From positions 1-49,672 of the forward strand of contig VMFQ01000012.1 of the NCBI GenBank assembly GCA_007376125.1: a stretch of DNA of 49,672 nucleotides, read 5' to 3'. Numbering within the stretch: the first letter of the stretch is position 1; the number at the start of each line of letters is the position of its first letter. The translations under genes and the position numbers were made by a program. The notes under the pieces are model-generated. The model saw only the letters and a list, made by a program, of their open reading frames with translations. It did not search any database and was not told the origin of the DNA. The DNA is from Parcubacteria group bacterium Gr01-1014_33 (GTDB lineage: Bacteria > Patescibacteriota > Minisyncoccia > Sungbacterales > HO2-52-23). Below are positions 11,148-49,672 of this stretch, piece after piece.

Positions 11148-12260
11148 TTATGTGAGCACATCGGGCGTGAACGGACTGAATTTCGGAATCGCGCATTGGG
11201 CGGTTTTTCCCACCACTTCCTCGTACTTCTCCGAAGGAAGACCTCCGGCAAATTCCTGCGGGCGCATGGCATATATCATATCGGCAGTGATTATCGCGCC
11301 TTTGGGAATATCTTGTCCTGCCATAAGCGATTTTCTGAAAATGGAGCGGAACGGAACCTCGCCTTCGTGAAGAAATTTGTTTTCAGTCCCCATATATTTT
11401 TGCATTGCCGGATCCTCGGCAACGGCCACGCGTTTCTCCGGATTATTTTCAATCGCGCGAATTCCTCGCACCATTTTTGAAAATTCATCGGGCGTCATTG
11501 AAACTTTATGATCCGGCCCCCAAAGCGCCCGATCAAACGTAAAGTGTTGTTCTACCATTCTTGCACCCAGCGCAACCGCCGCAATTGCCGGTTCAACCCA
11601 CGGAGAATTTTGGGAAAACCCGATGGTAACTCCCGGAAAACGTTTTTGAAAAAACGGGATAGTGAGTAAATTAGAATCTTCCGCCGGATACGGATAGCGC
11701 GATATCGCATGCATTAACACAAATCGCCCGTTTTTGCGGCGAAGAAAATTAAGCGACTGATCCACATCTTCCAGTGTAGACATTCCTGTCGGGATAATAA
11801 TCGTCTTTCCGGTTTCCACCATAAAATCAAGCATAACAAAATCAAGAATATCGGAAGACGCTACTTTCCAAAACGGTACATCAAGTTTTTGGAGTTTTTG
11901 TGCCGCTCCGCGCGACATCGGTGTTGAGAAAAATACAATCCCGATTTCATCGCAATAGGATTTCAATGGCTTCCAAAAATCTTCCATGGGCGTTGAGCGT
12001 TCGTTTCGCGATACCCATTGATAGCGGCTTTTGCCCTTGAAATGCGGCGAATCAAATTCCATGTTCAACACTTCATCCTCTACATTGTGCGTCTGAAACT
12101 TCACCGCATCCGCGCCTTTATCTTTTGCGGCACGCGCGAGCACACGTGCATTTTCCAGATATTCCGAAACCGGTCGCTCGTCCTCGGTCTGGATAAAATT
12201 TTTTCCGATTTCGGCGACTATGACTACTCCTTTTTGAAGTTTTTGTTCAAGAATGTTCAT
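11148..12260 (-). CDS. Divergent NeuB-family (sialic/nonulosonic acid synthase-like) protein with C-terminal SAF domain
   Basis: Start is MNILEQKLQKGVVIVAEIGKNF at 12260. GADAVKFQTH and AAVALGARMVEQHFT are present, with an SAF-like tail. It has AEIGKNF instead of AEIGxNH and GFSQNS instead of the SDH/SGH motif seen in the other three paralogs. Confidence 0.7.
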   Translation of the reverse strand: MNILEQKLQKGVVIVAEIGKNFIQTEDERPVSEYLENARVLARAAKDKGADAVKFQTHNVEDEVLNMEFDSPHFKGKSRYQWVSRNERSTPMEDFWKPLKSYCDEIGIVFFSTPMSRGAAQKLQKLDVPFWKVASSDILDFVMLDFMVETGKTIIIPTGMSTLEDVDQSLNFLRRKNGRFVLMHAISRYPYPAEDSNLLTIPFFQKRFPGVTIGFSQNSPWVEPAIAAVALGARMVEQHFTFDRALWGPDHKVSMTPDEFSKMVRGIRAIENNPEKRVAVAEDPAMQKYMGTENKFLHEGEVPFRSIFRKSLMAGQDIPKGAIITADMIYAMRPQEFAGGLPSEKYEEVVGKTAQCAIPKFSPFTPDVLT

Positions 12261-12299
12261 GGAATATTGTTTATAAAACACCCTATGGAGCGTTTTGGT

Positions 12300-12329
12300 A
12301 ACAAAAAACCCACATGCAGAACGCAAGTG
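12300..12329 (-). terminator. Intrinsic terminator after the pilin-like gene
   Basis: On the minus strand the stem CACTTGC-gttct-GCATGTG (6 of 7 pairs) is followed by GGTTTTTTGTT. Confidence 0.5.
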
Positions 12330-12394
12330 AGTAAGAATTTGTCGGCTATCCAAAAAGGATAAATTCGCTTAGATGTATCACTGTATCAGACAAT

Positions 12395-12943
12395 TCACGG
12401 GCACGGACGGCTAGAAGGAATAAGAAAACATATACCGTCTCCAATGCCTGTACAAGAAGGTCCGTCCTGCTGTAAAAACCCGTCGGGGCCAGCCGAAGCA
12501 ACGGTATCAAATCGGCAGTCGGTTGGACCATACTCCCGCTCATTTTCGTCAAGTAAGTACGGGCTTCCCCAGGGATCGCGCATCATGCGATCAATACCGG
12601 AAACGGTCCCGTTTGTTGCTGCTTGAATTGCATTGAGATCATTAACCCACTGCGTGTAGCAACCATCAGTTGTCGGAACATTGCGAAGGTCTCTCCCGCC
12701 ACACACACAATAACTACACGCGCTTCCCGTAATATCCTGCAGGCGCATCGCGGATTCGCCCTGCGCCACAGTCGCCGCTTTGACAAATTGATTAATTTCT
12801 GCATTGGCGCGAGCATACTTGGCTTTGTTTCGCGCGCTGTTAACTGATGTGAGTACCACACTTGAAAGTATGCTGATGATGGAGATAACCACCAGCAGTT
12901 CAACAAGCGTGAATCCCTTATCCCGAGAGTATGGATTGCGCAT
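12395..12943 (-). CDS. Type IV pilin-like protein (prepilin-type N-terminal cleavage/methylation domain), Cys-rich C-terminal region
   Basis: MRNPYSRDKG|FTLVELLVVISIISILSSVV is a class III signal peptide followed by the hydrophobic helix. Start chosen at 12943 (an alternative ATG is at 12952). The longer track ORF adds non-coding-looking residues. Confidence 0.8.
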   Translation of the reverse strand: MRNPYSRDKGFTLVELLVVISIISILSSVVLTSVNSARNKAKYARANAEINQFVKAATVAQGESAMRLQDITGSACSYCVCGGRDLRNVPTTDGCYTQWVNDLNAIQAATNGTVSGIDRMMRDPWGSPYLLDENEREYGPTDCRFDTVASAGPDGFLQQDGPSCTGIGDGICFLIPSSRPCP

Positions 12944-12963
12944 ATGTGTCATCCCCGTAACTT

Positions 12964-12978
12964 GGAAACTCGGTTTCC
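12964..12978. promoter_or_regulatory. GGAAAC-TCG-GTTTCC palindrome in the pilin 5' region; recurs at 14624-14637 and 36526-36540
   Basis: Read directly at three loci with conserved flanks (a/t)(c/t)TTGGAAACTCGGTT(T)CC. Here it lies ~20 nt upstream of the pilin start. It is downstream of an extended -10-like TGTTATACT (12994-13002, minus strand). Confidence 0.35.
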
Positions 12979-13060
12979 GAGTGGGATTTCTAAAGTATAA
13001 CACATCCAAAAAATTAATAACATACCATCCGTGCCCGGAAACAACTCTCCAATCCAATCC

Positions 13061-13352
13061 TTACCCCCACGCGATCAAAAGAACTCCCGCGACCATGAAG
13101 AGCGCACCTGTGAGGCGCTCGCGGAAGTGGCCTTCTTTGTGGACGAGGCGGCCTAAGAATACGTCAAACACAATACTCAAAAAACACAATACTCAAACGT
13201 TTAAGAGAAATAAAGTATGCGGCAAGGATTAGGGAAAGGCCTATATAATGCAAGACCACAGTAATCAGATACGATGCGCTCATGCCGAAAAAAGACGAAT
13301 CTAAGATCCTACGAGACCGGGTCTCATAGGATACATTGATTATTGTTTCCAC
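13061..13352 (-). pseudogene. DMT/EamA transporter C-terminal fragment (about 3 TM) disrupted by a 16-bp tandem duplication
   Basis: The GTG start at 13352 follows GGGGGAGG. The ORF ends ...LKRLSIVFFEYCV*. The duplicated TTTGAGTATTGTGTTT (13166-13197) shifts the frame. Removing one copy restores ...LSIVFDVFLGRLVHKEGHFRERLTGALFMVAGVLLIAWG* (stop at 13061-13063), a typical EamA C-terminus. Confidence 0.55.
13069..13181. repeat. 113-bp direct repeat, copy 1 (encodes an EamA C-terminus)
   Basis: Identical to 14653-14765 except for one base (13082 a versus 14666 c). Confidence 0.9.
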
Positions 13353-13480: not shown

Positions 13481-14530
13481 CTAGTTCCCAATAACAATTT
13501 CTATCGTATCAAGCAGACGGCCCATAAATCCATCAGACGTAATCAACATCGCGCCCACTGTTACAATGAAAGCAGGTCCAAGTCGAACCTTTGCCTTCTC
13601 TTCGTGAAGGAATATCCAGGAGAGAATTACTGCGAATATAACCGATAAGCGATTTACACTTCCTACGTATGCAATAGGAGCTAAAAGATACGCGAGCATA
13701 GATGGCACTGCGGCAATTACAATACTGCCGCCACAGAGGAAAATAATTCCAAGGCTGTATTTATTTGCCTTCAATTTCGCTCTCACTCCTAAATATTCCT
13801 CTCGTATTACTTTCCTACCCGAATACAATAGATGAATGAGAGCAAAAATTATTGTGAGAGACAGCCATTTATATATGAGCCCGATTATTACATCCCCACT
13901 ACGCGCCATAAGGGCATCACATATAATGCCGCCTCCTCCCAAAATTGCAGATCCATATCCAGAACGGAGTGCTCGTATTTTATTCAGCACTCCTTCATCC
14001 TGTGATTCGGAAATAGGCAGTTTCCATCCAAGCCATGGAATTTTTCTCGGAAGGGGTAAAACAAAGATTTTCCACCAACCTTTCCACGGTTCTCCTGCCC
14101 GTATATGCCAAAAATTTCCCCCCATGATCGCCATAATTCCAAACTTTCCCTGCCAACTTACCTGTTCTTCAAGAAAGAATGCAGGTATAAGAAGAAGGCC
14201 TGGGGTAAATGATTGCACAGGAGCAACAAAAGATGCCTCTCCAAATCTACTTGCCCTTGTTCTTAATATGAGAATTCCTAAATTTAACGCAACTGAACCG
14301 CCAAGCCAACCATAAAAAGAAAGTGTGTTCGCACTGCGAAAGAGCATTCCATGTAGAGCCATTAGAATACTGGCAAAAATAAGGAGAATTACCGTAACAG
14401 TTTGGCTTACGATAAGAAAACCAAAATCCGATAGACCAATTTCTTTCTTGAGCAACCATTTTTTTGTTACTTCATATCCTGCAGTACCAAAAGCAGAGAG
14501 AAGCATTAGAGCAATTGCCAAGATTTGCAC
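13481..14530 (-). CDS. DMT-superfamily (EamA-like) polytopic membrane protein
   Basis: 349 aa with about 10 TM helices. The GTG start follows GAGGAGGA. The C-terminal NRLSVIFAVILSWIFLHEEKAKVRLGPAFIVTVGAMLI matches the EamA repeat-2 end. Confidence 0.6.
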   Translation of the reverse strand: MQILAIALMLLSAFGTAGYEVTKKWLLKKEIGLSDFGFLIVSQTVTVILLIFASILMALHGMLFRSANTLSFYGWLGGSVALNLGILILRTRASRFGEASFVAPVQSFTPGLLLIPAFFLEEQVSWQGKFGIMAIMGGNFWHIRAGEPWKGWWKIFVLPLPRKIPWLGWKLPISESQDEGVLNKIRALRSGYGSAILGGGGIICDALMARSGDVIIGLIYKWLSLTIIFALIHLLYSGRKVIREEYLGVRAKLKANKYSLGIIFLCGGSIVIAAVPSMLAYLLAPIAYVGSVNRLSVIFAVILSWIFLHEEKAKVRLGPAFIVTVGAMLITSDGFMGRLLDTIEIVIGN

Positions 14531-14652
14531 AGTTATTCCTCCTCGTTTTCATTCTTCTATCAAAGACCGAAATGTTTTTATTATCTACATCTACCACATC
14601 GAATTAACTAAGTCAACTCATTTGGAAACTCGGTTCCGAAGTAGTTATCCAA

Positions 14653-14765
14653 ACGCGATCAAAAGCACTCCCGCGACCATGAAGAGCGCACCTGTGAGGC
14701 GCTCGCGGAAGTGGCCTTCTTTGTGGACGAGGCGGCCTAAGAATACGTCAAACACAATACTCAAA
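14653..14765. repeat. 113-bp direct repeat, copy 2
   Basis: See 13069-13181. It is entered out of frame by the upstream EamA ORF. Confidence 0.9.
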
Positions 14766-15389
14766 CAGATGTGAAAACCCTCGCTGGAACCAAAGAATTA
14801 TGGTTATGGCAAGAAGAAGCAAGACAAGACTATAGAACGTGAAAAGAAGCGGCGAGGCATACTGAAAAGAAAATTTAGTGATGGTAACGCCGGAAGCCGC
14901 AAGAAATGCGGATGCGAGCATATACCATGTCCCTTTTTCTCTCAAAAGATTTTTCATGCTTCCAAATTTTCCTTGACTTTCTTTTCCAAGAAAAAACGGC
15001 CCAATCATCACGGATAATATTCCAATAGCGCCGAGCGTTGAGGGAAGCTCACCGAGAAAAACATATCCAAGAGGGATCAGAAAGAGCGCCGAGAGAGAAA
15101 AAAGAGGTCCTACAAGCGACTGCGGCGAAGATTGAAATGCGCGCACATAAAGATAGCTTAAGGCAAGCTCCACCGGAAGCGAAAGTCCGAGAAGGATCAG
15201 CCAAAAGCGCGGTTCCGGAATTTTCCATTCCGCAAAAAGGGTAACCAAAAGCGCCATCACTGGAAGACCTCCCAAAAGTCGGTACCAGTTCAATAAAAAA
15301 GGATTTTCGGCTTTCAGTCCTTCACTCTTAAAAAACGTGTTTTGAAACGAAGAACCAAGCGCTGAAATAAGTCCGAAAAGTATGCCCAT
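14748..15389 (-). CDS. EamA/DMT transporter, apparently truncated after TM7 (possible pseudogene)
   Basis: 213 aa with 7 TM helices. The ORF ends FSHLFEYCV* five codons into the 113-bp repeat. The +1 frame of the repeat encodes the expected last helix (LSIVFDVFLG...VLLIAFG*). TM8-9 are missing. Confidence 0.55.
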   Translation of the reverse strand: MGILFGLISALGSSFQNTFFKSEGLKAENPFLLNWYRLLGGLPVMALLVTLFAEWKIPEPRFWLILLGLSLPVELALSYLYVRAFQSSPQSLVGPLFSLSALFLIPLGYVFLGELPSTLGAIGILSVMIGPFFLGKESQGKFGSMKNLLREKGTWYMLASAFLAASGVTITKFSFQYASPLLFTFYSLVLLLLAITIILWFQRGFSHLFEYCV

Positions 15390-15392: not shown

Positions 15393-15481
15393 TTAGGAAG
15401 TAGATGGTAGGAAGTAGGAAGTAGTAAAAAGCGGAAGGGAGGGTTTTATACTACTACCTACTACCTAATTCTTCTACTACC
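15393..15481. repeat. Low-complexity imperfect palindrome (AGGAAGT / ACTACCT words)
   Basis: taggaagtagatggtaggaagtaggaagtagta ... tactactacctactacctaattcttctactacc. The right arm overlaps the stop of the dehydrogenase gene. Confidence 0.55.
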
Positions 15482-16449
15482 TGTTTTGCAATAAACTCTT
15501 CGGTTATATGCATTGCCTCATATGTTGCCCCGCCGATGTGGGGAACTATAATAAGATTGGAATGGGTTTTTGCGTAGTTCCACAGCGGATCTTTTTTGAG
15601 GTGTCTTCCCTTCCCCTCCTCGTCCCACATAACGTCAATCGCGGCTCCGGCGATCCATTTTTGTTTGAGCGCTTGTATTAAGGCGTTTCGCTCAATAATC
15701 TCGGCACGCGCAGTATTGATGAGATGGGCAGTTTTTTTCATCATCTGAAAGTGCTTTTCTTTAATACACTCACGGGTCTCGTCCGTGAGAAGAATATGAA
15801 GAGTTACGATATCAGATGTGGTAAGAAGGGTTTCGAGCGAAACTTTTTTAATGCCATATCGCTTCATTGTCGTTTCATTCACATAAGGGTCATACCCAAT
15901 AACACGCATGCCAAACGCGCCCGCATATTTTGCTGTAATTTTTCCAAGACGCCCGCAGCCCACAATGCCAAAAGTTTTCCCGATGAGTTGATGCCCTTTC
16001 CATACATCGCGATTCCAATTCCCTTTTTTTATATCCTCAAATGCCCATGGAATCTTACGAACGAGCGCAAGTGCCAGAGCCATGGTTTCCTCTGCCGTGG
16101 AAGGAATACTTTTAAGAAAAGAAGAATGACCGCGGAGCGACATTACTCTTATTCCGCGTTTTTTTGCCGCATCCATATCAATATGGTTTAAGCCAGTAGT
16201 GGGAGTCGCGATAATTTTCAGATTCGGCATTTGAGAAAACCATTTTTCATCAAGGGTATATTTGAGGCGCACCACAACAATATGGGCAGATCGCAAAACT
16301 TTTTCTTTTCTTTCCCCATCGAGTTCTGAAAAAAAATACACCGGACCTACTCTCCGGTACGTTGTCAGCGCGTCCTTTGAATAATCTATTGGCTCGAGAA
16401 TAAGGGTAGTATATTTCATTGCTACATTGCTAAAAACGATTTTAACCAT
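15454..16449 (-). CDS. D-isomer-specific 2-hydroxyacid dehydrogenase (phosphoglycerate/glycerate dehydrogenase-like)
   Basis: GIVGCGRLGKITAKYAGAFGMRVIGYDP is an NAD fold, and the C-terminal region has PHIGGAT. The ATG at 16449 overlaps the upstream stop by 8 nt. An alternative ATG is at 16419. Confidence 0.75.
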   Translation of the reverse strand: MVKIVFSNVAMKYTTLILEPIDYSKDALTTYRRVGPVYFFSELDGERKEKVLRSAHIVVVRLKYTLDEKWFSQMPNLKIIATPTTGLNHIDMDAAKKRGIRVMSLRGHSSFLKSIPSTAEETMALALALVRKIPWAFEDIKKGNWNRDVWKGHQLIGKTFGIVGCGRLGKITAKYAGAFGMRVIGYDPYVNETTMKRYGIKKVSLETLLTTSDIVTLHILLTDETRECIKEKHFQMMKKTAHLINTARAEIIERNALIQALKQKWIAGAAIDVMWDEEGKGRHLKKDPLWNYAKTHSNLIIVPHIGGATYEAMHITEEFIAKQVVEELGSR

Positions 16450-17161
16450 GTAATAATTTCTTCAATGCTCTTTCCGCCGCTTTCCAGTCCTCCGGTATGT
16501 TAATATCCACCACGTATTTTTTTTCTATTATGTACGGCATCACTTTTTCGCCATAGAAATTTGGATGTTCGGAATCAAATAAAAGAGAGGGCTTAAAAAG
16601 ATACATCATGCCAATACTCCAGTATGTTTTGGGAAGTTCCTGTCTTTGACTCATTCGCATATACACCGGATTTCCGTTAAAAAGTCGGAGTATTCCGTTT
16701 CTCTCCAAAACCATCGCTTTGTGTGGACTGTAATTTTCCGGAATTTCGGAAACGCTTACTACTGAATCCGCCTTGCTTTTAATAATTAAATCAGCCGCCT
16801 CTTTAATATGAAAGGGTTGGCGCAAAGGAGAAGTGGGCTGGAGAATCATCGCATAGTCCGGCGCGTACCCTTCTTTCTCTTTAAGAACCGTTACCGCATG
16901 TTGCATGACTTCAAGATGCAGAACATGGTCTTCGGCAAGTTCTTTTGGACGTATAAACGGAACTTCGCATCCGTTCTGCCGCGCGACCTCGGCAATTTGA
17001 GGATCATCGGTGGAGACAATCAGACGATCAAGCGCGCCGGATTTTTGGGCGGCTTCAATCGTATACGCGATTAAGGGTTTGCCTAAGAGCGATTTTATAT
17101 TTTTGCCCGGAATCCCTTTTGATCCGCCGCGGGCGGTTATGACGCCGAGAACTTTAGGCAT
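16442..17161 (-). CDS. neuA: Acylneuraminate (NulO) cytidylyltransferase, CMP-sugar synthetase
   Basis: GVITARGGSKGIPGKNIKSLLGKPLIAYTIEAA...DRLIVSTDDPQIA is the classic CTP_transf_3 N-terminus. Confidence 0.85.
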   Translation of the reverse strand: MPKVLGVITARGGSKGIPGKNIKSLLGKPLIAYTIEAAQKSGALDRLIVSTDDPQIAEVARQNGCEVPFIRPKELAEDHVLHLEVMQHAVTVLKEKEGYAPDYAMILQPTSPLRQPFHIKEAADLIIKSKADSVVSVSEIPENYSPHKAMVLERNGILRLFNGNPVYMRMSQRQELPKTYWSIGMMYLFKPSLLFDSEHPNFYGEKVMPYIIEKKYVVDINIPEDWKAAERALKKLLHG

Positions 17162-17263
17162 GAATCATGAATTAGGAATCATGAATTAGGAATTTTAAAT
17201 ACTTCTTTTCTGTATTCTATCCCTGATTCATAATTCCTTATTCCTTATTCCTTATTTCATGAT
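17162..17263. repeat. Low-complexity imperfect palindrome (GAATTAGGAAT / ATTCCTTATTC words)
   Basis: gaatcatgaattaggaatcatgaattaggaat ... attcataattccttattccttattccttatttcatgat. Confidence 0.55.
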
Positions 17264-18429
17264 ACTTCAAAAAATTTCTTCTGGCTGTAGAGCGGCGTCT
17301 GCTGTAAAATCTCCGCGATCCGTTTGCTCGTATCCGGCTTATAGTAAATATGAGAGGAGGGATACCGGCCGTGTTCCATTTGCGCCGTGATAGCGTGTGT
17401 GATGAGAGATGCGTCGTAACCCGCATCGCAGACATTTTCCGCGCGGAGGCGCCCTTGCTGGCGCGTGCCGATGTTTACGACCGGCGTTCCAAAATACGAA
17501 GACTCTTTTATGCCGGAAGACGAATTTCCCACGAGGCAGGACGCCCGTTTCAGAAGCGCGATAAAGTCTTCCGGAAGCATATCGGTTACGAAATGAATCG
17601 GAGCGTTGCCGCGCCGCGCGCGTTCGCGAAATATCCGGATCGCTTTTGCCATCTCATCGGTCCCGGCGTCCGAATTCGGCCAGAACCAGACTGCGGGCAC
17701 TTTGAGTTCGTCCACCGCCTGCAAAGTCATTTCAACATGTTCCCGATTTTTTACCTCGGTTGTTACCGGATGCTGGATTACCATAAGGAACGGTTTTGAA
17801 ATATCTACCCCCTCCCCCACCCCCATACGATTTACAAAATCCGCCGGCAATCGTTTTTTCACCCCTGCCGCAAATTCTACATCAAGCGATCCTACATTAT
17901 ATACAGAATCCGGATCCTCTCCCATCTGGACCACGCGCCGCCGCGAATCTTCATTTGTTACAAAATGGACATGCGAAAGTTTCGTAATTGCGTGCCGTAC
18001 GCTCTCGTCAATCGTGCCAGTAACGTCCCCGCCCTCTATGTGCGCGACTGTTTTATTCAAATACGCAGCCACCATTGCCACCGCTAACTGTTCAAACCGA
18101 TCTCCGCGGATAAGCACAATGTCCGGATTTAGTTTGTGGAGTATGTTCGCGGATTCAAGCGCGGTCAGCCCGGCTGTCTTTGCCATGGTCACATGATTTC
18201 CACCCTCAATCACGTTATAGAGCGTCTCGTGAATTTCAAACCCCGCGTCGCGGATCGCCGGCAAAAAACGCTCGCCGTATTTTTCAAGAATCGCCGAGCC
18301 GCCCACCACGAGCTGGAGTTCAATTTTCGGATTGCCGCTATTGAGGAGTTCCAAAAGCCGCTTCTGCCGCGCGTAGTGAATCCGGCTCATTATGGGAAAG
18401 CAGATTTTTCTAGGTTTTTGCTTATCCAT
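17257..18429 (-). CDS. neuC: UDP-N-acetylglucosamine 2-epimerase, hydrolysing type (NeuC/LegG-like)
   Basis: Start is MDKQKPRKICFPIMSRIHY at 18429. IRGDRFEQLAVAMVAAYLNKTVAHIEGGDVTGTIDESVRHAITKLSHVHFV is present. The longer track ORF only adds a translated repeat. Confidence 0.8.
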   Translation of the reverse strand: MDKQKPRKICFPIMSRIHYARQKRLLELLNSGNPKIELQLVVGGSAILEKYGERFLPAIRDAGFEIHETLYNVIEGGNHVTMAKTAGLTALESANILHKLNPDIVLIRGDRFEQLAVAMVAAYLNKTVAHIEGGDVTGTIDESVRHAITKLSHVHFVTNEDSRRRVVQMGEDPDSVYNVGSLDVEFAAGVKKRLPADFVNRMGVGEGVDISKPFLMVIQHPVTTEVKNREHVEMTLQAVDELKVPAVWFWPNSDAGTDEMAKAIRIFRERARRGNAPIHFVTDMLPEDFIALLKRASCLVGNSSSGIKESSYFGTPVVNIGTRQQGRLRAENVCDAGYDASLITHAITAQMEHGRYPSSHIYYKPDTSKRIAEILQQTPLYSQKKFFEVS

Positions 18430-38986: not shown

Positions 38987-38992
38987 ATTTCC

Positions 38993-39697: not shown

Positions 39698-39723
39698 GAA
39701 ATTGCTGCCAAATGTTGCTTCTT

Positions 39724-39792: not shown

Positions 39793-39810
39793 AGAGACTT
39801 CCAGACTTAC

Positions 39811-42246: not shown

Positions 42247-42250
42247 GATT

Positions 42251-42463
42251 GAAATTTTCAATTTACAATGAGAGTTACGCGTTTCATTCTTTCTGTCATT
42301 CCCAACTTGATTGGGAATCCAGTCTTTCTTTCATTCTTGATTCCCGCTTTCGCGGGAATGACATCAAACGCGTAAGTCCTAAATTCTTAAAATTACCAAT
42401 TTTCAAATTGAAAATTCAAGAATTGAAAATTTATTGAAAATTGTTTATTGAAAATTGAAAATT
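42251..42463. repeat. Composite palindrome: GAAAATT-word outer arms enclosing a GTCATTCCC...GGGAATGAC element (42295-42362)
   Basis: gaaattttcaatttacaat...(gtcattcccaacttgattgggaatcc...attcccgctttcgcgggaatgac)...ttgaaaattgtttattgaaaattgaaaatt. Confidence 0.65.
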
Positions 42464-42467
42464 AGCG

Positions 42468-43223: not shown

Positions 43224-43270
43224 TATGTAGATAAAACCCGCCTGCCGCTTGCGAAGTTTCTATATATTCC

Positions 43271-44572
43271 CTACCTCACCAATAGCTCAATATCACCGTC
43301 ATACTGGATTTCTATAGGAGAATCGCCAAATGAGGTAAACCTTGTCTTGAGAGGACTTTCAATAAGAGTCATGGGTAGGCTCTTGAAGCGTTTACCAGTA
43401 AATTTCCGATAGACTCTATTGCAAAAAGGCCGAGCGCGTATCCATCTTCGACGCACATCGCGATCGAAAAAAGTAGGTAGGAAAGTAGCTGTGGCCGATG
43501 GCGCGCCTATATTATCCTCATTCCAGGAAAAAGAATACCGCTTGCCGCGAGAAAGGGATTTTGGAAGGAAAAAAGAAGAAAACTTTTTAACCGGATCGCT
43601 CACGCATTGTTTCTTATAATGCGCGCGAGGAGAAGCAACTTTTTTTGCTAAAACCATAATCTCCTCAAATGTATCTGAAGCGTCTTTCATTACCTCATAG
43701 CCATGCCGATTTAAAAGTTTTTCTATACCGCAATAGGTATACGAATGAAGATGCGGAAGCCAGAAGAGAATTGTTTTAACCGGTTCATAGAGCGTATTAG
43801 GCATGGCAAGGATAATATGGTCCCCTTCTTCCTGAAGAGCTGCCGCGGTCCTTATAAATTCGTTTGGGTTGTACACATGCTCAAATACATGTGCGCTGAA
43901 AAATATTCCGATGGGAGCAACGGATTTAAGCGCCACAGCCACTTTCGGATTTTCAAAATTCCCCACATGCACCGGATACCCATAGCGTTTAGTGGCGAAT
44001 TCGCTTCGAAAGCGCGAACTCTCTACTCCTATCAGATTCTTGAATCCGATATTTTCAAACTCCTTCAAGACATCTCCGTATCCACAGCCAATGTCGCATA
44101 CGGGAGTGTTTGCACCAATGGCCAAAGATTTTGCAAGATGAACTGCAGCTCTCCGCGCGGGTGGAATTTTTTGCTTTTTTGCATGGGCAGCTTCCTTGAT
44201 TGCATCCCGCTTCTTTGCCCAGTCCCAATCGTTGAGGTAAAAATTCTCCATCCATTCTTTTGTCGGCCGATCCATGTAGCCGGAATATCCGCATTCAGAG
44301 CAATGGCCAATTCGCATGCGCCTTACATCATGTCCTGCGACCAGCGTAAGAAATGTCTCTAATTCTACTCCGCAACAGGGGCATAAGTTTTGAACGTCAA
44401 AAGGAACGTCGGATCCTAATTTGATTGTCCGATAGGTATAATAATGACGAAAATAATGTAAACGAAATCCACATTGATTCAATGCTTTTTGAGAATTTTT
44501 TCCACGTGGCTTAAAAAAATATTGCGGGATGACACGAAATTTAGTTCGCTCATTTTTTTGGCGTGAGAGCAT
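43271..44572 (-). CDS. Class I SAM-dependent methyltransferase with N-terminal Cys4 zinc-ribbon-like motif
   Basis: CPCCGVELE...CSECGYSGY precedes VCDIGCGYGDVLKEF (motif I). The ATG at 44572 is chosen because the track start at 44638 is a TTG. Confidence 0.7.
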   Translation of the reverse strand: MLSRQKNERTKFRVIPQYFFKPRGKNSQKALNQCGFRLHYFRHYYTYRTIKLGSDVPFDVQNLCPCCGVELETFLTLVAGHDVRRMRIGHCSECGYSGYMDRPTKEWMENFYLNDWDWAKKRDAIKEAAHAKKQKIPPARRAAVHLAKSLAIGANTPVCDIGCGYGDVLKEFENIGFKNLIGVESSRFRSEFATKRYGYPVHVGNFENPKVAVALKSVAPIGIFFSAHVFEHVYNPNEFIRTAAALQEEGDHIILAMPNTLYEPVKTILFWLPHLHSYTYCGIEKLLNRHGYEVMKDASDTFEEIMVLAKKVASPRAHYKKQCVSDPVKKFSSFFLPKSLSRGKRYSFSWNEDNIGAPSATATFLPTFFDRDVRRRWIRARPFCNRVYRKFTGKRFKSLPMTLIESPLKTRFTSFGDSPIEIQYDGDIELLVR

Positions 44573-45587
44573 ATCGTATATATTGCGGAAGAGGGTAATT
44601 TTTAGACCTCTCAAAAGTTTGAGAGTGCCCCTCCACAAGAGATGCTTCGGATAAAAACGCCCCGGTAAACATCAGCCGTTCACCTTCTAGGCAATGCCCG
44701 CCCTTATGTAGGCCACTGGTATCGCAAAAAATCAGAGTTCCGGCAGTTCCGGTGCATACTCGGATATCACTCGCAGAAATGGTTTTTTCCACTTCTCCCG
44801 GCTTAGGATAGGAGCCTTTAGGGAACGACTGCGACGCAACATGCCGCCACCTTCCTCCATATTGCGAACCGGCAATATAACAGAAAGGTCCCCTCTTCTC
44901 ATTGGAAACATCATTTATATATAAAAACACTTTGACGAGCTTAATATCATCTGGATCACGGTGCCAGCGCTGGGAAAAATAGTTGGGAAATTTTTTTGAC
45001 ACAGGAATCGTGAGCGCCAGATTATAATATGCAAAACGAGTACACATGCCCATATAGCTATTTATGATCCCGAGCACCACATCGCTTAGTGCCATTCGCA
45101 TAAAAGGATTAGTAAGATCAATTGCAGTGGAATCGCTGTGACCCCATAAAGAGATAAAAAAATCTTTTCTTTCTCCACCCTGGCGAGATGCTTTTTCAAG
45201 TTTTTTTAATACCACGTTCTCGTTATATCCCTCGAGCTCTTTTTCTTTTTCTGCAAGAAACTTTTTTTGTTCTTGAATACGCGCCTGAACTGATAAACTT
45301 TCTAATTTTTTGAATGTAAAACTCTGGATATCAGTAAAAATTTTCTTATCTGAAAGTAACCTTTCCAAAGGGACAACAGCGATACCATCCCGCTTAAGTG
45401 CAGCCATTATCTCTTTTTGAATATTATTTAATTCATAATAAGAATTCTTCCAGAATATGCGCGGTTTTCTATTGCGTACATAATACCACACAGGCCATGC
45501 AAATCGTGTAGTATAATAATATGCATGATAGCTTAGTTTGAGGATTTTTTTTCTTGCATACCCGATTTTTTTAAAAAAAGAAGACAT
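44550..45587 (-). CDS. PhyH-like Fe(II)/2-oxoglutarate-dependent dioxygenase
   Basis: WHRDPDDIKLVKVFLYINDVSNEKRGPFCYIAGS with a distal GLHKG gives the HxD...H facial triad pattern. Confidence 0.65.
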   Translation of the reverse strand: MSSFFKKIGYARKKILKLSYHAYYYTTRFAWPVWYYVRNRKPRIFWKNSYYELNNIQKEIMAALKRDGIAVVPLERLLSDKKIFTDIQSFTFKKLESLSVQARIQEQKKFLAEKEKELEGYNENVVLKKLEKASRQGGERKDFFISLWGHSDSTAIDLTNPFMRMALSDVVLGIINSYMGMCTRFAYYNLALTIPVSKKFPNYFSQRWHRDPDDIKLVKVFLYINDVSNEKRGPFCYIAGSQYGGRWRHVASQSFPKGSYPKPGEVEKTISASDIRVCTGTAGTLIFCDTSGLHKGGHCLEGERLMFTGAFLSEASLVEGHSQTFERSKNYPLPQYIRYALTPKK

Positions 45588-45619
45588 ATTTTTTGATAGT
45601 TAGAACTTATGCATTTGGT

Positions 45620-45710
45620 GTCATTCCCGCCTCCGGTCGTAGCTGAGGGTAAACTCCAGCGGGAATCCAGTATTAAGAAGAACTGGATTCCCAATCGCGT
45701 TGGGAATGAC
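45620..45710. repeat. GTCATTCCCGC ... TTGGGAATGAC palindromic repeat
   Basis: gtcattcccgcctccgg...ccagcgggaatccag...ctggattcccaatcgcgttgggaatgac. Confidence 0.7.
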
Positions 45711-45734
45711 AGAAACAGCGAATCACATAAATAA

Positions 45735-46562
45735 TTACCACGCGGTTTTGCCGCCGTCCATGATAAGATTTGCTCCGGTCATAAACAAAGAGGCATCCGA
45801 ACAAAGAAAAAGCATTGCGCCGTTATATTCCCCCCCTTGCGCCATCCTGCCAAACATGATGAGCGACGAGTAGCGCTTCACAAAATCTTCCGGATGAGTT
45901 GGTGTTTGCATGCCCACTGGACAAAACATATTTACGCGCACACCATGCGGAGCAAGATATTCAGCCCATGCGCGCGTAAGCCCCAGTAATGCGCTTTTTG
46001 TCGCAATATACGCGGCCGATTTGTATTTGCCCGAGCCCTCTCCGTAGACGCGATGATCATATGCGGTTACCGCAAGTTCCGAACCCTGATTGATGATTAC
46101 TCCTCTTTTTTGATTCATCATTATGGGACTTACCGCTTGCGTGCAAATTTCCGCTCCGGTTAAATTTACCTCAACTTCTTTGCGCCACAAGTCTATCGGA
46201 TATTTTTCATAGGGCGCAAAAAGCGCTTCCGCATCTTTGCTTCCTACTGCGGGATTCATTGCCGCATTATTGATAAGTACATCAATTTTGCCAAATTTTT
46301 TCACCACCGCATCTACTGCGGCTTCAACTGCTTCTTTTTGGGTGATATCCACTCTTACCGCCATCGCCTCAACTCCGCTTGCATTTGTAATTTTTTGCAT
46401 GGATTCCTGCATCACCATTTCATCTTTTAGATCAAAAAGAACTACATGTGCTCCGGCCATGCTCAACACATCCGCATACTGCATACCCAAAAACCCCGCG
46501 CCTCCAGTAATAATCACCACGCGATCTTTTAGGGAAAATAGTTGAAAAATATCAGGATTCAT
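45735..46562 (-). CDS. SDR family oxidoreductase (paralog of 34344-35159)
   Basis: The ATG at 46562 gives MNPDIFQLFSLKDRVVIITGGAGFLGMQY. NNAA and YIATK are present, and the shared C-terminus is GANLIMDGGKTAW. Confidence 0.75.
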   Translation of the reverse strand: MNPDIFQLFSLKDRVVIITGGAGFLGMQYADVLSMAGAHVVLFDLKDEMVMQESMQKITNASGVEAMAVRVDITQKEAVEAAVDAVVKKFGKIDVLINNAAMNPAVGSKDAEALFAPYEKYPIDLWRKEVEVNLTGAEICTQAVSPIMMNQKRGVIINQGSELAVTAYDHRVYGEGSGKYKSAAYIATKSALLGLTRAWAEYLAPHGVRVNMFCPVGMQTPTHPEDFVKRYSSLIMFGRMAQGGEYNGAMLFLCSDASLFMTGANLIMDGGKTAW

Positions 46563-47323
46563 GTTTTTTGAGGATTTCGCGCACAAATTCAAGCTGCCTT
46601 TTCGCGTCCCCGAGATAATCGTCGCTTCGCCATGCCTGCAGAATATATGTTCCATTATAACCAATCTCCGAGAGGACTGCAAAGCATTTTTCAAAATCAG
46701 CATCGCCCGTGCCCAGAATCACCGACTGTGTGCTTCCCCCCTTCCGATCTTTTACATGCACTCCAAAGACACGCGTACCAAGCATCTTGAAATCTCTTGG
46801 ACAATCAAATCCATACGAGGTGCAATTGCCAATATCATAATACACGCCGACGCGAGGACTTTTGAAGCGATCCACGAAATCAATGAGCTCGTTTACGGGA
46901 AGTTCGGTTTCAAACGCAATCCGCAACGTGTTATCCCTCATCCCGTTGAGCGCTTGGGTGATAACGGAAATAATTTTCTGTTTCTCTCCTTCGCTTTTAA
47001 CCGCGTGATCCTCAAGAAGCGGAATAAGAATAAGGTTTTGGCCAATCTTGGCCGCATATTGCATCTGGGGAATAAGTTCGCGATTCACCACCTGAACCGG
47101 GTCTCTTCCCACCAACGGATACTTCATGAAATAGTCCGAGCACATTGAGAGAGTTTCTATTCCGCTTAAACTCTTCCCAATCCAAAAGCCACTCAATGCA
47201 ATCAAATCCCATCTCGCGCGCCACCTTAAACTCTTTCTGCCAATCCGGCGGAAAAAATTGCAACCGTTTTTCATTTTCCGGGCGCAGGGTAAGCCGCCCC
47301 TGCATAATTCCAATTTTGTTCAT
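46552..47323 (-). pseudogene. UlaE/SgbU-like sugar-phosphate 3-epimerase/isomerase (xylose-isomerase-like TIM barrel) with a frameshift
   Basis: The N-terminus MNKIGIMQGRLTL...GFDCIEW is in the frame of ORF 47012..47350. The rest (SGIETLSMCSDYF...VGVYYDIGN...HVKD...GYNGTYILQAW) is in the frame of ORF 46552..47313. The switch lies within 47167-47188. Confidence 0.6.
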
Positions 47324-47442
47324 CCCGTGAGAAATAGGACGCAGACGCAAAGGGCATCTTGCGTACTATGTTATTGCTAATAATTTTTTTCTATGTATGT
47401 TATATTTTCGGGTATGCGGCCGCGATTTCTAACGAGGTTCAT
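47324..47442 (-). repeat. Stop-to-start intercistronic element, copy C (near-identical to copy A)
   Basis: About 105 nt are identical to 28313-28420 except for one T-run indel and a few end bases. The sORF is MNLVRNRGRIPENITYIEKNY (47442-47377). The 3' arm ATTTCTCAC is followed by GGG-ATG (47323). No upstream gene abuts this copy. Confidence 0.7.
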
Positions 47443-47573
47443 CCCGCGAGAAGTCTGTCTTTATAGAATTTGTGATTCACTTCAGACAGACAAAATATCT
47501 TTATGCCCCTATTTGTTTATACCCCAGCGTAAAGATTTTAGCAAATCTTTCCACCGTAATCCCTCACCGCATT

Positions 47574-47675
47574 GTCATTGCGAGTCCCGCTGAAAGCGGG
47601 ACGTGGCAATCCCGTTTCCCAAGATTAAGATTGATTCGTCAAAACGCATTGGGAATACGTTTTGACTCGCAATGG
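47574..47675. repeat. GTCATTGCGAG ... CTCGCAATGG palindromic repeat (copy 3)
   Basis: Read directly. The inner hairpin is CCCGCTGAAAGCGGG, and the trailing GTGAGAGGTTAC is as at 18585-18596. Confidence 0.7.
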
Positions 47676-47782
47676 CGGAAAAAAGGTGTGAGAGGTTACT
47701 TTCCACCCAAGACCTATCACGAGATCCATATTTATTAAAACCTATAAAAATACACAAAAGTTGCGGGGTTGAGGGAATCTCA

Positions 47783-47810
47783 TTGACAACATCCGTATAA
47801 GAAATATACT
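47783..47810 (+). promoter_or_regulatory. Sigma70-like promoter predicting a leaderless mRNA for the AKR gene
   Basis: TTGACA-16 nt-TATACT-6 nt-ATG (47817). Confidence 0.5.
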
Positions 47811-47816
47811 GAAAGC

Positions 47817-48708
47817 ATGAAAAACAACATGCCGCAAAAAAAGCTTGGGAGGACAAATTTTTTGGTTTCTAGAATCGGGCTTGGGACAGTTGAGCTTGGC
47901 TACACGTATGGCATTGGGCCACGCACGATGCCTGACGAAACAGATGCCATAAAATTGCTTCGCGAAGCAGTTGAGATGGGGGTAACATTTTTTGATACCG
48001 CGCATTTTTATGGTTCTGCCGAAGAGCGCATTGGTAAATCCGGAATTGCAAAGATGGAAGGAGTGATCGTCGCAACAAAATGCGGCCATGTGCTTGATAA
48101 GGCACTTGCGATAACGAAGGAAGAGCTTGAAAAAGAGGTACGGAAAGAAGTGGATGAGTCAAGAAAAAAACTTGATATGGACACACTTCCTCTTGTCATG
48201 TTCCATGGCGGATCAAAAAAGCAAATTGAAGAAGGCGGGCTTATTGAAATTATGCAGCAGCTGAAGGATGAAAAAAAGGTGGCATACAGCGGTATTACCA
48301 CGCGCGGGGAAGAGGCGCCGATGGCCGCAATCCAAAGCAATTTCTTTGATGCGCTTCAAGTACCCTATAGCATTTTGGATCAGCGGATGAGTAAGGCGGT
48401 ACTTGCCGAAGCCGAGAAAAAAAATATTGGCATTGTCGCAAGGTCTGTGCTTCTCAAAGGCGCGTTAACTCCGGCGGTAGTATGAACGCATCCATGTAGT
48501 GCTTGTGGGCACAAACAACCTGGACCACATCCAAAACGCCGCTCGGGTCGCAGAAATGGATCCGCTCCCGCAGGACGTATTGGAGAATCTGAAAAAACTT
48601 GCAATAGAAGACATATCGCAGGTTGACCCCGCCCACTGGCCGCCTTCATCCGTAAGCGACAGCAAGAACGGAGAAAAACTACTCCCGCATCTTTATAAGA
48701 GGAAGTAG
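47817..48708 (+). pseudogene. Aldo/keto reductase with internal deletion and frame break
   Basis: ORF 47817..48485 has LGRTNFLVSRIGLGTVELG...FFDTAHFYG...IGIVARSVLLKGALT. After a stop, another frame continues from 48481 with (Y-E-R-I-H-V)VLVGTNNLDHIQNAARVAEM, the AKR C-terminus. The ~50 aa normally in between are missing. Confidence 0.6.
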
Positions 48709-48762
48709 TATCCCATTCTTATCTCTTCCTTATCTCTCTTTCCACTCATTCTGAAAAACAAT

Positions 48763-48804
48763 CCTACTCACACTTACTTGCTATAGCAAGTAAGTGTGAG
48801 TAGG
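48763..48804. terminator. Perfect 19-bp stem hairpin between convergent genes
   Basis: CCTACTCACACTTACTTGC-TATA-GCAAGTAAGTGTGAGTAGG. On the minus strand it is followed by ATTGTTTTTC. Confidence 0.5.
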
Positions 48805-48879
48805 AAATTTTGACCATATAGGGAACCCTATTTTTCAATAGAGTGAGTAAAGTGTCCTAAATATCTATAGTTTCTCCCA

Positions 48880-48925
48880 ATAAAAAATGGCGTTTCAATT
48901 TGCATCGAAACACCATTTATGTTTT
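48880..48925. terminator. Bidirectional intrinsic terminator
   Basis: ATGGCGTTTC-10 nt-GAAACACCAT (9 of 10 pairs) is flanked by AAAAAA upstream and TTATGTTTTT downstream. On the minus strand it follows the neuB-like stop by ~30 nt. Confidence 0.6.
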
Positions 48926-48949
48926 TAGAATTTTATCTTTGCACTGCCA

Positions 48950-49672
48950 CTATTCTACATCGGCAAACGTGACATTTTCGTCAAAAAGGATGTCTCGCTT
49001 TGCTTTCTTTCCGATGATACGCGCCAAATTGCCATCCATTGCATAGACGCCATTACCAGGCCTTTTGGCACCAAGGTGAGATGCGGTGATGATCTCCCCT
49101 TTTTTGATATCAACAACTGCACAGATGCTCTTTCGCATACCGATGATGTTTTCAAGCTCTCCGCCACGGGGACGGATTTCGGGTGTTCCCAATGCCTTCT
49201 CCACGACCCGAATCGCATCTACAAATTCCTTAAACTCTTGGGGCTCCATGGATGCTTTGTGATCCGGACCGCTTCGCGCTTTGTCGTCAGTAAAATGGCG
49301 TTCATATACTTTTGCGCCAAGAGCCGCCGCCGCAATGCTTGAAACCGGCCCTTCGGTGTGATCCGAAAATCCAACCACATCAACAAATCTTTTCAGAGAT
49401 TGCATCGCGAGTAAATTTTGATCTTCCGGATTTGCGGGGTAGTTGGTATTGCATTGGAGAAGAATCAAATTATCCGGATTTGTTTTATTTTTTTCCGCCT
49501 CATCGCGAAATGCAGACACAGCCGCCATCACCTCGGTTTCGTTTGCAAGACCCACTGAAAGAATTACCGGTTTCCCGGTTTGCGCAGTTCTTCGAATAAG
49601 CGGATGATTTACGGTTTCAATCGAGGCGAGCTTATACGCCATAACTACTAACTTTTCCAATTCGTCCACAGC
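48950..49672 (-). CDS. neuB: NeuB-family nonulosonic acid synthase with SAF domain; N-terminus outside the window
   Basis: VGFSDHTEGPVSSIAAAALGAKVYERHFT...GPDHKASMEP, with SAF tail VVDIKKGEIITASHLGAKRPGNG. The ORF is open to the window edge. Confidence 0.8.
   Translation of the reverse strand, partial: AVDELEKLVVMAYKLASIETVNHPLIRRTAQTGKPVILSVGLANETEVMAAVSAFRDEAEKNKTNPDNLILLQCNTNYPANPEDQNLLAMQSLKRFVDVVGFSDHTEGPVSSIAAAALGAKVYERHFTDDKARSGPDHKASMEPQEFKEFVDAIRVVEKALGTPEIRPRGGELENIIGMRKSICAVVDIKKGEIITASHLGAKRPGNGVYAMDGNLARIIGKKAKRDILFDENVTFADVE

Follow-up and report, generated by a model that had tools for sequence, protein, structure and literature searches.

The window analysed here is one whole contig, VMFQ01000012.1 (49,672 nt), of the metagenome-assembled genome (MAG) of Parcubacteria group bacterium Gr01-1014_33, an uncultured ultra-small groundwater bacterium of the Parcubacteria, a group in the Candidate Phyla Radiation (CPR; also called Patescibacteria). 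It contains a gene array of ~46 kb, from 3989 to the contig end, with four NeuB-family synthases, four cytidylyltransferases and four putative transferases for nonulosonic acids (NulOs), along with precursor and tailoring genes for such sugars. A previous reading of the letters and open reading frames of this DNA (hereafter the sequence-only reading) described the array as co-directional. From 3989 onward the genes do lie on the minus strand, with two exceptions on the plus strand: a TylF methyltransferase at 38993-39697 and, at 47817-48708, an aldo-keto reductase. Strand is given below only for plus-strand genes.

Synthases, cytidylyltransferases and putative transferases

All four NeuB paralogues named by the sequence-only reading were recovered with the Pfam model NeuB PF03102 (gathering cut-off 22.1 bits): NeuB1 (11148-12260; 218 bits), NeuB2 (26099-27160; 277 bits), NeuB3 (41299-42246; 258 bits) and NeuB4 (48950-49672; 187 bits), the last continuing in its 5' part past the contig end. 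That reading would have failed had the paralogues belonged to 3-deoxy-D-manno-octulosonate 8-phosphate (KDO8P) synthases or other aldolase families, an identity ruled out because matches were confined to the NeuB-family models PF03102, TIGR03569 and TIGR03586, with none to a KDO8P-synthase or DAHP family. The NeuB_NnaB model TIGR03569 scored NeuB1 to NeuB4 at 234, 362, 258 and 236 (equivalog cut-off 399.65) and the PseI model TIGR03586 at 194, 284, 210 and 195 (cut-off 340.25), so that all four lean toward the NeuB/Leg type rather than PseI. Compared with solved structures, NeuB2 is SpsE-like, with its best match to Bacillus subtilis SpsE (214 bits), followed by PseI (178) and NmNeuB (156). 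NeuB1, a member of a CPR-specific clade, matched NmNeuB (149) and SpsE (145). The NeuB4 type matched NmNeuB (152) and PseI (145), and NeuB4 is classed as LegI-like; its relatives at 51-60% identity carry the JGI name N,N'-diacetyllegionaminate synthase. The best solved relative of NeuB3 is 6ncs, a 290-aa chain that lacks the SAF domain; the database output names no organism for it, and we take it to be a Leptospira protein.

The four CTP_transf_3 enzymes were likewise found where they had been placed (PF02348, gathering cut-off 22.6 bits): CTP1 (16442-17161; 93 bits), CTP2 (30732-31496; 108 bits), CTP3 (38108-38833; 84 bits) and CTP4 (42468-43223; 62 bits). Each carries the N-terminal nucleotide-binding motif ARxxS(K/T)xxxxK. 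CTP1, CTP3 and CTP4 are NeuA/PseF-like, scoring 183, 130 and 129 with the PseF model TIGR03584 (equivalog cut-off 205.7), which does not match CTP2. The best solved relatives of CTP1 are the CMP-Neu5Ac synthetases 6ifd, 9ftb and 1eyr, while that of CTP2 is 6oew, a chain named merely 'Cytidylyltransferase' and not NeuA; the KdsB match of CTP2 is weak. From our own recognition of its sequence we take CTP2 to be of the SpsF type, and we know of no solved SpsF structure for comparison.

Four further genes, each encoding ~450 aa, are TagB/BFO_1060-like and are candidates for the transfer step: NulOT1 (19931-21280), NulOT2 (23733-25079), NulOT3 (32820-34214) and NulOT4 (39811-41193), the last adjoining NeuB3. 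Pfam Glyphos_transf is above cut-off for NulOT1 (29.9 bits), NulOT2 (35 bits) and NulOT4 (35 bits). NCBIfam was scanned for NulOT1 and NulOT3, which matched the BFO_1060 model NF046086 at 52 and 78 bits (cut-off 200), and an HP motif was seen in NulOT3 and NulOT4 alone of the four. BFO_1060, Tanf_01245 and TFUB4_00887 are TagB-like proteins that add a pseudaminic (Pse) or legionaminic (Leg) acid derivative to the Tannerella forsythia O-glycan and are not interchangeable (PMC5420450). We call NulOT1-4 putative NulO transferases because the BFO_1060 scores fall far below the cut-off and the case rests mainly on synteny, which is conserved in L026, L029, L031 and L034. The GT-B/TagF-like fold of an AlphaFold2 model of NulOT4 speaks for such a role.

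Divergence and conserved partner sets

The synthases are 34-41% identical among themselves, and their best orthologues elsewhere are far closer: 88% for NeuB1, 81% for NeuB3, 71% for NeuB2 and 69% for NeuB4. Orthologues of the paralogues in other CPR genomes are 57-88% identical, which rules out recent duplication within the locus as the origin of the paralogues. The cytidylyltransferases range from 26 to 43% identity; CTP1, CTP3 and CTP4 are mutually 40-43% identical and CTP2 is barely alignable to them. The putative transferases span 26-41%, NulOT3 and NulOT4 being the 41% pair. Among GTDB species genomes the nearest relatives of NeuB2 (67-71%), CTP2 (54-62%) and an adjacent DUF4910 protein (64%) are found in MAGs of Candidatus Kaiserbacteria and Candidatus Paceibacterota, which independently supports a CPR origin of the window.

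Gene neighbourhoods in these and other genomes fall into four recurrent sets. The first, in CPR loci L026-L030, runs NeuC-NulOT1-2-hydroxyacid dehydrogenase-CTP1-NeuB1, followed by a short UDP-sugar dehydrogenase and an epimerase (3989-5924 in the window); NulOT1 orthologues sit between NeuC and CTP1 in L026 and L029. Its NeuC/LegG-type hydrolysing UDP-HexNAc 2-epimerase (17257-18390), as named by the sequence-only reading, scores 350.9 bits with TIGR03568 (cut-off 235.9), and its D-2-hydroxyacid dehydrogenase (15454-16449; Pfam 187 bits) has syntenic orthologues in L029/L030 and L031. The NAD-dependent sugar-nucleotide epimerase (3989-4978; Pfam Epimerase 200 bits) and the short UDP-sugar dehydrogenase (4962-5924; Pfam UDPG_MGDP_dh) have orthologues, 80% and 73% identical, that adjoin the NeuB1 orthologue in L029. 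We rejected the idea that this dehydrogenase is a pseudogene, since the short form recurs in L026-L030.

The second set, DUF4910-CTP2-NeuB2, is found in L002 and L003; the DUF4910/DUF2172/HTH_47 aminopeptidase-like protein (31517-32818; Pfam 345 bits) is 64% identical in the Paceibacterota locus L003. The third, in L031, joins a CTP4 orthologue (75%), a NeuB3 orthologue (81%) and a transferase of the NulOT3/4 type, to which NulOT3 is 47% identical. The fourth, in the Sungbacteria loci L034 and L035, consists of a NeuB4-type synthase, a NulOT2-type transferase (46-48%), a CTP3-type synthetase (57%) and an aminotransferase (60%), with the NulOT2 orthologue between the NeuB4-type and CTP3-type genes. 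In the window the sets are interleaved, the partners of NeuB4, for example, lying 10-24 kb from it, which implies a mosaic rather than a product of tandem duplication. The comparisons support four separate, anciently diverged lineages of synthases, cytidylyltransferases and putative transferases, and in other CPR genomes each is conserved beside the partners specific to it.

Two synthases per locus are common among the CPR contigs retrieved (L031, L032 and L034). Metagenome loci that span 12 kb or more around a NeuB3-type gene contained a single synthase in 21 cases out of 22 and two in the remaining case. Vicinamibacteria MAG loci (L005-L011 and L014) repeatedly contain two NeuB and two cytidylyltransferase genes, the latter including an SpsF-like one, and after these come a PseG-like gene and an epimerase, so two-synthase NulO loci occur in the Acidobacteriota too.

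Precursor and tailoring genes

The sequence-only reading had described a Pse-like set. PseB-, DegT- and PseG-like genes are indeed present, but a specific assignment to Pse found no support. The UDP-GlcNAc 4,6-dehydratase (29474-30472; Polysacc_synt_2, Pfam 315 bits) scores 316 with the PseB model (cut-off 408) and, by motif reading, carries a T-x9-M-x3-K triad of the kind described for SpsM/CapE/PglF (PMC7439481). The DegT-family sugar aminotransferase (35288-36388) is LegC-like, with 351 bits for the LegC model and 260 for PseC (cut-off 424), both below cut-off. The PseG/SpsG-like nucleotide-sugar hydrolase (28423-29460) scores 125 with TIGR03590 (cut-off 154), and its homologues adjoin NeuB2-like genes in the Vicinamibacteria loci. 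The Met-type triad, the closeness of NeuB2 to SpsE and the preference of all four synthases for NeuB_NnaB over PseI weaken the Pse assignment further. In B. subtilis, genetic work has shown that a dehydratase, an aminotransferase, a PseG-like enzyme, SpsE and SpsF together produce legionaminic acid (PMC7439481). All five enzyme types (SpsM-, SpsC-, SpsG-, SpsE- and SpsF-like) are present in the window at moderate identities, and the set formed by the dehydratase, aminotransferase, PseG-like protein, NeuB2 and CTP2 looks more like this sps-type legionaminic route than a Pse set.

Most of the tailoring families listed by the sequence-only reading were confirmed in place by Pfam. They comprise a GNAT N-acetyltransferase (19388-19915; Acetyltransf_1 58 bits), a polysaccharide deacetylase (21277-22221; 89 bits), the 2-hydroxyacid dehydrogenase described above, the short-chain dehydrogenases SDR_a (34344-35186; 143 bits) and SDR_b (45735-46562; 153 bits), a formyltransferase (36553-37908; Formyl_trans_N 54 bits) and three methyltransferases. 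The methyltransferases are an S-adenosylmethionine (SAM) enzyme at 25090-25860 (Methyltransf_23 69 bits), the TylF-type O-methyltransferase at 38993-39697 (plus strand; TylF 123 bits) and a SAM enzyme with an uncharacterised N-terminal region at 43271-44572 (Methyltransf_23 43 bits). Two members of that list fell below threshold: a weakly FemAB-like protein (18642-19391; Pfam FemAB E 0.0035), which had no NCBIfam match, and a possible Fe(II)/2-oxoglutarate dioxygenase of the PhyH type (44550-45587; Pfam PhyH E 0.02). A WHRD...LHKG motif in the latter would suit a 2-His-1-carboxylate site; its single-sequence AlphaFold2 (AF2) model (pLDDT 34) was unusable.

Three more genes complete this group: an SDR-family sugar epimerase/reductase (27407-28333; Pfam Epimerase 119 bits), an AP_endonuc_2/xylose-isomerase-like TIM-barrel gene (46552-47350; Pfam 80 bits) and the aldo-keto reductase (47817-48708, plus strand; Pfam 96 bits, partial). 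Unrelated metagenome contigs repeatedly show SDR, AP_endonuc_2 and CTP4-type genes beside those of the NeuB3 type. The formyltransferase has an extra C-terminal domain of ~170 aa with a weak NUDIX-like NCBIfam match; a NUDIX fusion was considered and dropped, as no Nudix box was found. In Sungbacteria, separate NUDIX and left-handed-helix genes occupy the position equivalent to this extension.

Glycan-assembly frame and pilin gene

At the edge of the locus are a GT4 glycosyltransferase (875-2098, plus strand; Pfam Glycos_transf_1 125 bits) and an initiating phosphoglycosyl transferase (Bac_transf; 2077-3456, plus strand; Pfam 193 bits). A 770-aa membrane protein of the O-antigen ligase/O-oligosaccharyltransferase type (6409-8721) combines Wzy_C (50 bits, cut-off 31.7) with a C-terminal TPR region, and its homologues adjoin NulO genes in L002, L003 and L032. 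In the last of these, a Giovannonibacteria locus, the whole frame of GT4, Bac_transf and Wzy_C-TPR genes likewise surrounds NulO genes. A GT2 glycosyltransferase (22245-23561; Pfam 53 bits) lies within the array, as does a type IV pilin-like gene (12395-12952; Pfam N_methyl 35 bits) with the prepilin motif G|FTLVELLVV. The flanking phosphoglycosyl transferase, GT4 and Wzy_C-TPR ligase together with the embedded pilin indicate a surface-glycan or protein-glycosylation locus, and its role is probably protein or pilin O-glycosylation or the building of a cell-wall polysaccharide.

Next to the pilin are two EamA/DMT-type membrane transporter genes (13481-14530 and 14748-15389; Pfam EamA), a split pair that may be pseudogenes. 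A direct repeat of 121 nt (97%) at 13061-13181 and 14645-14765 takes in the 3' end of the EamA gene at 14748-15389, with the other copy just upstream of the pilin gene, and points to recombination or duplication as the source of the EamA_a or pilin segment.

Proposed pathways

Starting from the family memberships, paralogue divergence, syntenic pairings and residue conservation that are directly observed, we predict substrates, products and acceptor as follows. We think it fairly likely that the locus holds four separate sets of enzymes that make, activate and transfer nonulosonic or related ulosonic acids for a surface glycan. The sugar identities for all four sets are predictions from enzyme family and gene neighbourhood.

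In the NeuB1 set, NeuC would remove UDP from UDP-GlcNAc or a derivative and epimerise it, NeuB1 would condense the hexosamine with phosphoenolpyruvate (PEP), CTP1 would convert the product to a cytidine monophosphate (CMP) sugar and NulOT1 would transfer it. The 2-hydroxyacid dehydrogenase, the GNAT and the FemAB-like protein may tailor this sugar. The 4,6-dehydratase, the LegC-like aminotransferase, a transferase for N-acyl or N-formyl groups and the hydrolase of the PseG/SpsG type would yield 2,4-diamino-2,4,6-trideoxyhexoses, which NeuB2 (with CTP2) and NeuB4 (with CTP3) would condense to 5,7-diamino NulOs of the legionaminic/pseudaminic series, possibly in N-acetyl and N-formyl versions. 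These two sugars would share the dehydratase and aminotransferase and differ in synthase, in N-acyl group (acetyl or formyl) or in stereochemistry. SAF-less NeuB3, CTP4, an SDR and the AP_endonuc_2-type enzyme could produce one more ulosonic acid, whose precursor may be a phosphorylated sugar or one without an amino group; the methyltransferases and PhyH-like enzyme may decorate this acid. Tailoring would thus include methylation, hydroxylation, deacetylation and acylation. For each CMP-sugar a dedicated GT-B transferase of the TagB-like kind would attach it to a glycan begun by Bac_transf and extended by the GT4 and GT2 enzymes, and the Wzy_C-TPR protein would pass the glycan to its final acceptor.

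Evidence against four working sets and alternative explanations

Several observations weigh against this interpretation. NeuB_NnaB outscores PseI for every synthase, yet no synthase reaches either equivalog cut-off; none of CTP1-4 reaches that of PseF; and the PseB, PseC and PseG homologues are all below theirs, so that these labels hold at family level. A single dehydratase and a single aminotransferase serve two putative diamino-NulO synthases, and NeuB2 and NeuB4 may therefore give closely related products. NulOT1 and NulOT3 are far under the NF046086 cut-off, and the AF2 model of NulOT4 (pLDDT 76) shows a GT-B fold whose matches to TagF/TarL and to 2-epimerases, at TM ~0.5, are generic for that fold. 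NeuB1 lacks a metal ligand, His215, and NeuB3 lacks the SAF domain and has Ser at the Glu134 position. Other points of this kind concern the contig. NeuB4 is cut by its end. The stretch 27403-30496 has no witness in a second assembly, and exact-sequence look-ups of its PseB-like and PseG-like proteins returned no match; nor does the second assembly confirm the orientation of a block flanked by inverted repeats. The AP_endonuc_2 gene (46552-47350) and the aldo-keto reductase gene (47817-48708) are frameshifted here by deletions of 55 and 113 nt. Finally, a 371-aa NeuB (P0242) that is 91% identical to the partial NeuB4 occurs on another contig of the same MAG, 10,748 nt in length; an exact-sequence look-up of P0242 returned no match.

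The residues E25, K53, Q55, K129, S132, Y186, S213, E234, H236 and D247 of NmNeuB are, in our alignment, kept in each paralogue that covers them. His215 and His236 coordinate the metal in NmNeuB (PMC11339185); both are present in NeuB2, NeuB3 and NeuB4, while NeuB1 has Asn215 and His236. NeuB1 differs from NmNeuB further by Asp214Gln, Ser154Pro and Cys182Ala. Among its closest 120 relatives, Asn is found at 215 in 56 and Asp-His is kept in 63, and the Gln-Asn form pairs almost perfectly with Ala182, sister sequences keeping Asp-His and Cys. In L026 and L029 the Asn215 NeuB1 type is the sole synthase of an otherwise complete module and is thus presumed to be a working enzyme there. The comparison indicates that the Asn215 form of NeuB1 is a conserved variant and not a remnant, and the Gln-Asn/Ala182 clade may be a class of metal-independent synthases.

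NeuB3 departs in another way. Arg314, reported as essential in NmNeuB (reference list of PMC11339185), lies in the SAF domain, which NeuB1, NeuB2 and NeuB4 have; NeuB3, without SAF, also lacks Arg314. SAF is absent from ~30% of NulO synthases in UniProt (PMC8208679). The NeuB3 family has more than 8000 relatives in which the absence of SAF and Ser134 are invariant, with 60 invariant alignment columns. From the catalytic residues largely retained and the close orthologues, none of the four synthases looks like the decayed remnant that would have told against the sequence-only reading.

The alternative that fares best concerns NeuB3 by itself. Its module might make a Kdn-, Kdo- or higher-ulosonic acid from PEP and a sugar phosphate, comparable to the animal/Bacteroides Kdn-9-P route, rather than an amino-sugar-type NulO, so that the locus would mix classes of acidic sugar. 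The missing SAF domain is in keeping with this, and the family-invariant motifs KFQKR and GYSGHE, read in the alignment, resemble in our own judgement the animal Neu5Ac-9-P synthase. P0142, a 539-aa NeuB3 relative, joins a SAF-less NeuB domain and a GmhA-like SIS_2 phosphosugar-isomerase domain in one chain, a hint that in this family PEP is condensed with a sugar phosphate. The recurrence of AP_endonuc_2 and SDR genes beside NeuB3-type genes fits as well; in Leptospira a synthase is fused to an endonuclease-like 'phosphatase' domain, and a phosphorylated route has been proposed (PMC3438082). However, the best model for CTP4 is PseF (129 bits), well over the KdsB models, no HAD phosphatase or sugar kinase was seen in the window, and NeuB3 is a clear member of PF03102 and not a KDO8P synthase. 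We regard this alternative as possible, though not the outcome we would expect.

A second explanation, which we consider unlikely, is that the cell makes fewer sugars than the genes imply, the paralogues being partly redundant or inactive and the products limited to one or two NulO backbones. One NeuC-derived sugar might, for example, be accompanied by one diamino sugar with alternative N-acyl groups, NeuB1 or the NeuB3 module being non-functional or regulatory in this strain. The single 4,6-dehydratase and aminotransferase, the lost metal ligand of NeuB1, the missing SAF domain and Arg314 of NeuB3 and the two frameshifted genes would all be accounted for in this way. Against it, the Asn215 form is conserved in 56/120 relatives, co-varies with Cys182Ala and serves as the only synthase of complete modules; the SAF-less family is large and strongly constrained, as noted above; each of the synthases comes with a synthetase and a transferase that are conserved as its partners; and both broken genes are intact in the sibling assembly described below. 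The evidence from families, paralogue divergence and conserved pairings supports a multi-NulO system rather than a single sialic-acid pathway, as the sequence-only reading had proposed; combinatorial use of the sugars, which that reading also raised, would be a further possibility.

Repeats and a possible cassette

Five genes (CTP2, DUF4910, NulOT3, SDR_a and the aminotransferase) make up a 5.9-kb block enclosed by a perfect 52-nt inverted repeat with arms at 30540-30591 and 36458-36509. This block may be a cassette that is invertible or mobile; the window has no recombinase gene. In the sibling contigs of the second assembly the arms are longer by 50 nt outside and 69 nt inside (~171 nt).

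An intergenic element of ~130 nt occurs in three copies (28299-28426, 35152-35281 and 47316-47442), the first and third of which agree at 95-98% identity. Inverted repeats of 13 nt (CCCCGTTAGAAAT / ATTTCTAACGGGG) form its ends, every copy stands directly upstream of the start of an SDR or TIM-barrel gene, and the element has no Rfam match; it may be a shared promoter/operator or a miniature inverted-repeat transposable element. A scan of the whole window with Rfam returned no match, and no tRNA genes were found in the window. AT-rich, partly palindromic intergenic repeats lie at 23574-23721, 25870-26029, 34194-34345, 42275-42475, 45587-45730 and 27285-27324, bracketing the blocks NulOT2 plus methyltransferase and CTP4 plus methyltransferase plus PhyH-like gene. 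Two of these sites are indels between assemblies, with 150 nt present here alone (34196-34345) and ~100 nt present in the other assembly alone (at 27285-27292), as if these repeats were mobile. Between an RNase T-like exonuclease gene and NeuB1, a small open reading frame (10672-11091) without a family match contains five tandem 27-nt repeats (10874-11008) encoding ATKEDLKYF.

A bolder idea, to which we give little credence, combines these repeats with the NeuB1 variant. The NeuB1 clade (Asn215, Asp214Gln, Cys182Ala) would be naturally metal-independent synthases, by analogy with the Cys-to-Asn switch between metal-dependent and metal-independent KDO8P synthases. The locus would specify a variable, possibly switchable multi-NulO coat of an episymbiont, used for host recognition or for evasion of phage or host, given the four synthase/synthetase/transferase sets, the inverted-repeat-flanked cassette and the mobile intergenic repeats.

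Integrity of the contig

A separate assembly in ENA from a matching sample (ERZ27284378) covers most of the window in three contigs, which match 1-27403, 30496-36509 and 36423-49573 at 99.8-100% identity. The orientation of the 5.9-kb block is not independently fixed, because these contigs end within the repeat arms. In the ENA contig k139_646284 (L023) the AP_endonuc_2 (276 aa) and aldo-keto reductase (334 aa) genes are intact, and the deletions in the deposited contig are either real strain variants or assembly errors. P0242 stops two residues before a stop codon, at the end of its own contig; it represents one of three things, namely a fifth paralogue, a variant between strains or a continuation of the locus, and its presence elsewhere in the MAG implies that the locus continues or differs between strains.

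That the contig is an artefact, fusing closely related strains or mis-orienting a block at repeats so that no single genome has all four synthases, is highly improbable: the split of the ENA assembly with no contig over 27403-30496, the perfect inverted repeat, the 91%-identical NeuB4 variant in the bin and several indels between the assemblies, located at intergenic repeats, would suit it, but each of the two large ENA contigs has two synthases by itself (NeuB1 and NeuB2; NeuB3 and NeuB4), GC is even along the contig (45.2-45.9%), tetranucleotide profiles correlate between its blocks at r 0.89-0.97 (-0.02 to 0.83 against other loci), the order DUF4910-CTP2...NeuB2 across the unconfirmed join is that of Paceibacterota L003, and one direction of transcription is common to all blocks.

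Significance

CPR bacteria are thought to live attached to hosts, have very small genomes and possess a surface chemistry that is almost unstudied. Our literature search found no paper joining nonulosonic acids with Patescibacteria, although passing mentions of sialic-acid genes in CPR exist. Judging from typical CPR genome sizes, we estimate that a locus of at least 46 kb presumably takes up several per cent of a typical Parcubacteria genome. Such a share for four sialic-acid-like sugars suggests a central part for acidic nine-carbon sugars in the way the cell presents itself, and the locus indicates that known enzyme families make an unusually elaborate sugar coat on the cell surface. The NeuB1 type has 1663 relatives, the named ones including Parcubacteria, Magasanikbacteria and Sungbacteria, so the pathway may be shared by CPR bacteria in general. 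In addition, the locus supplies defined sets of enzymes in which to look for new NulO structures and for CMP-NulO synthetases and NulO transferases, reagents that are in short supply in glycobiology. Of note are the His215Asn synthases, SAF-less synthases and SpsF-type synthetase, and the conserved synthase clade without the metal ligand is the most interesting enzymological lead.

Comparison with known systems

A cluster in Leptospira interrogans with several NulO synthases, aminotransferases and two CMP-NulO synthetases has been read as a multi-NulO system with biochemical support (Ricaldi et al. 2012, PMC3438082). The likeness lies in the several synthases within one cluster, and Leptospira also has a divergent synthase linked to an endonuclease-like domain. 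Here, by contrast, four synthases, four synthetases and four putative transferases occupy at least 38 kb in a CPR host rather than a spirochaete, AP_endonuc_2 is a separate gene and one synthase carries His215Asn. In Campylobacter jejuni, the flagellin glycosylation island (pse and leg/ptm) and the lipooligosaccharide gene neuB1 provide several NeuB paralogues for Pse, Leg and Neu5Ac together with many tailoring genes. Campylobacter differs in its Maf-type flagellin transferases, its GDP-linked Leg route and its three synthases distributed over two loci, whereas the window has no flagellar genes and its transferases are TagB-like.

The B. subtilis sps genes (SpsM/C/D/G/E/F; PMC7439481) resemble the window in the triad-bearing Polysacc_synt_2 dehydratase, DegT aminotransferase, acyltransferase and PseG-like, SpsE-like and SpsF-like enzymes. 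The SpsE likeness is moderate (214 bits), and the N-acyl step in the window may be carried out by a formyltransferase or a GNAT. T. forsythia Tanf_01245 and TFUB4_00887 (PMC5420450) share the arrangement of TagB-like GT-B genes beside NulO genes, with one NulO in each case in Tannerella. The window scores of 52-78 bits compare with a cut-off of 200 for the BFO_1060 model, and the HP motif is limited to NulOT3 and NulOT4.

The combination of Wzy_C-TPR, pilin and formyltransferase genes in the window recalls Pseudomonas aeruginosa 1244. There the Wzy_C-family protein TfpO/PilO moves an undecaprenyl-linked O-unit, capped by an N-formylated NulO (Pse5Hb7Fo), onto type IV pilin. The pilin of the window is at most a candidate acceptor: CPR genomes commonly contain pilin genes, and no pilin gene was seen in the related loci we examined. 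Since multi-NulO clusters are known in Leptospira and in Campylobacter, the array of four synthases, four synthetases and four putative transferases is an expansion of a known theme that is new for CPR, and not a new mechanism.

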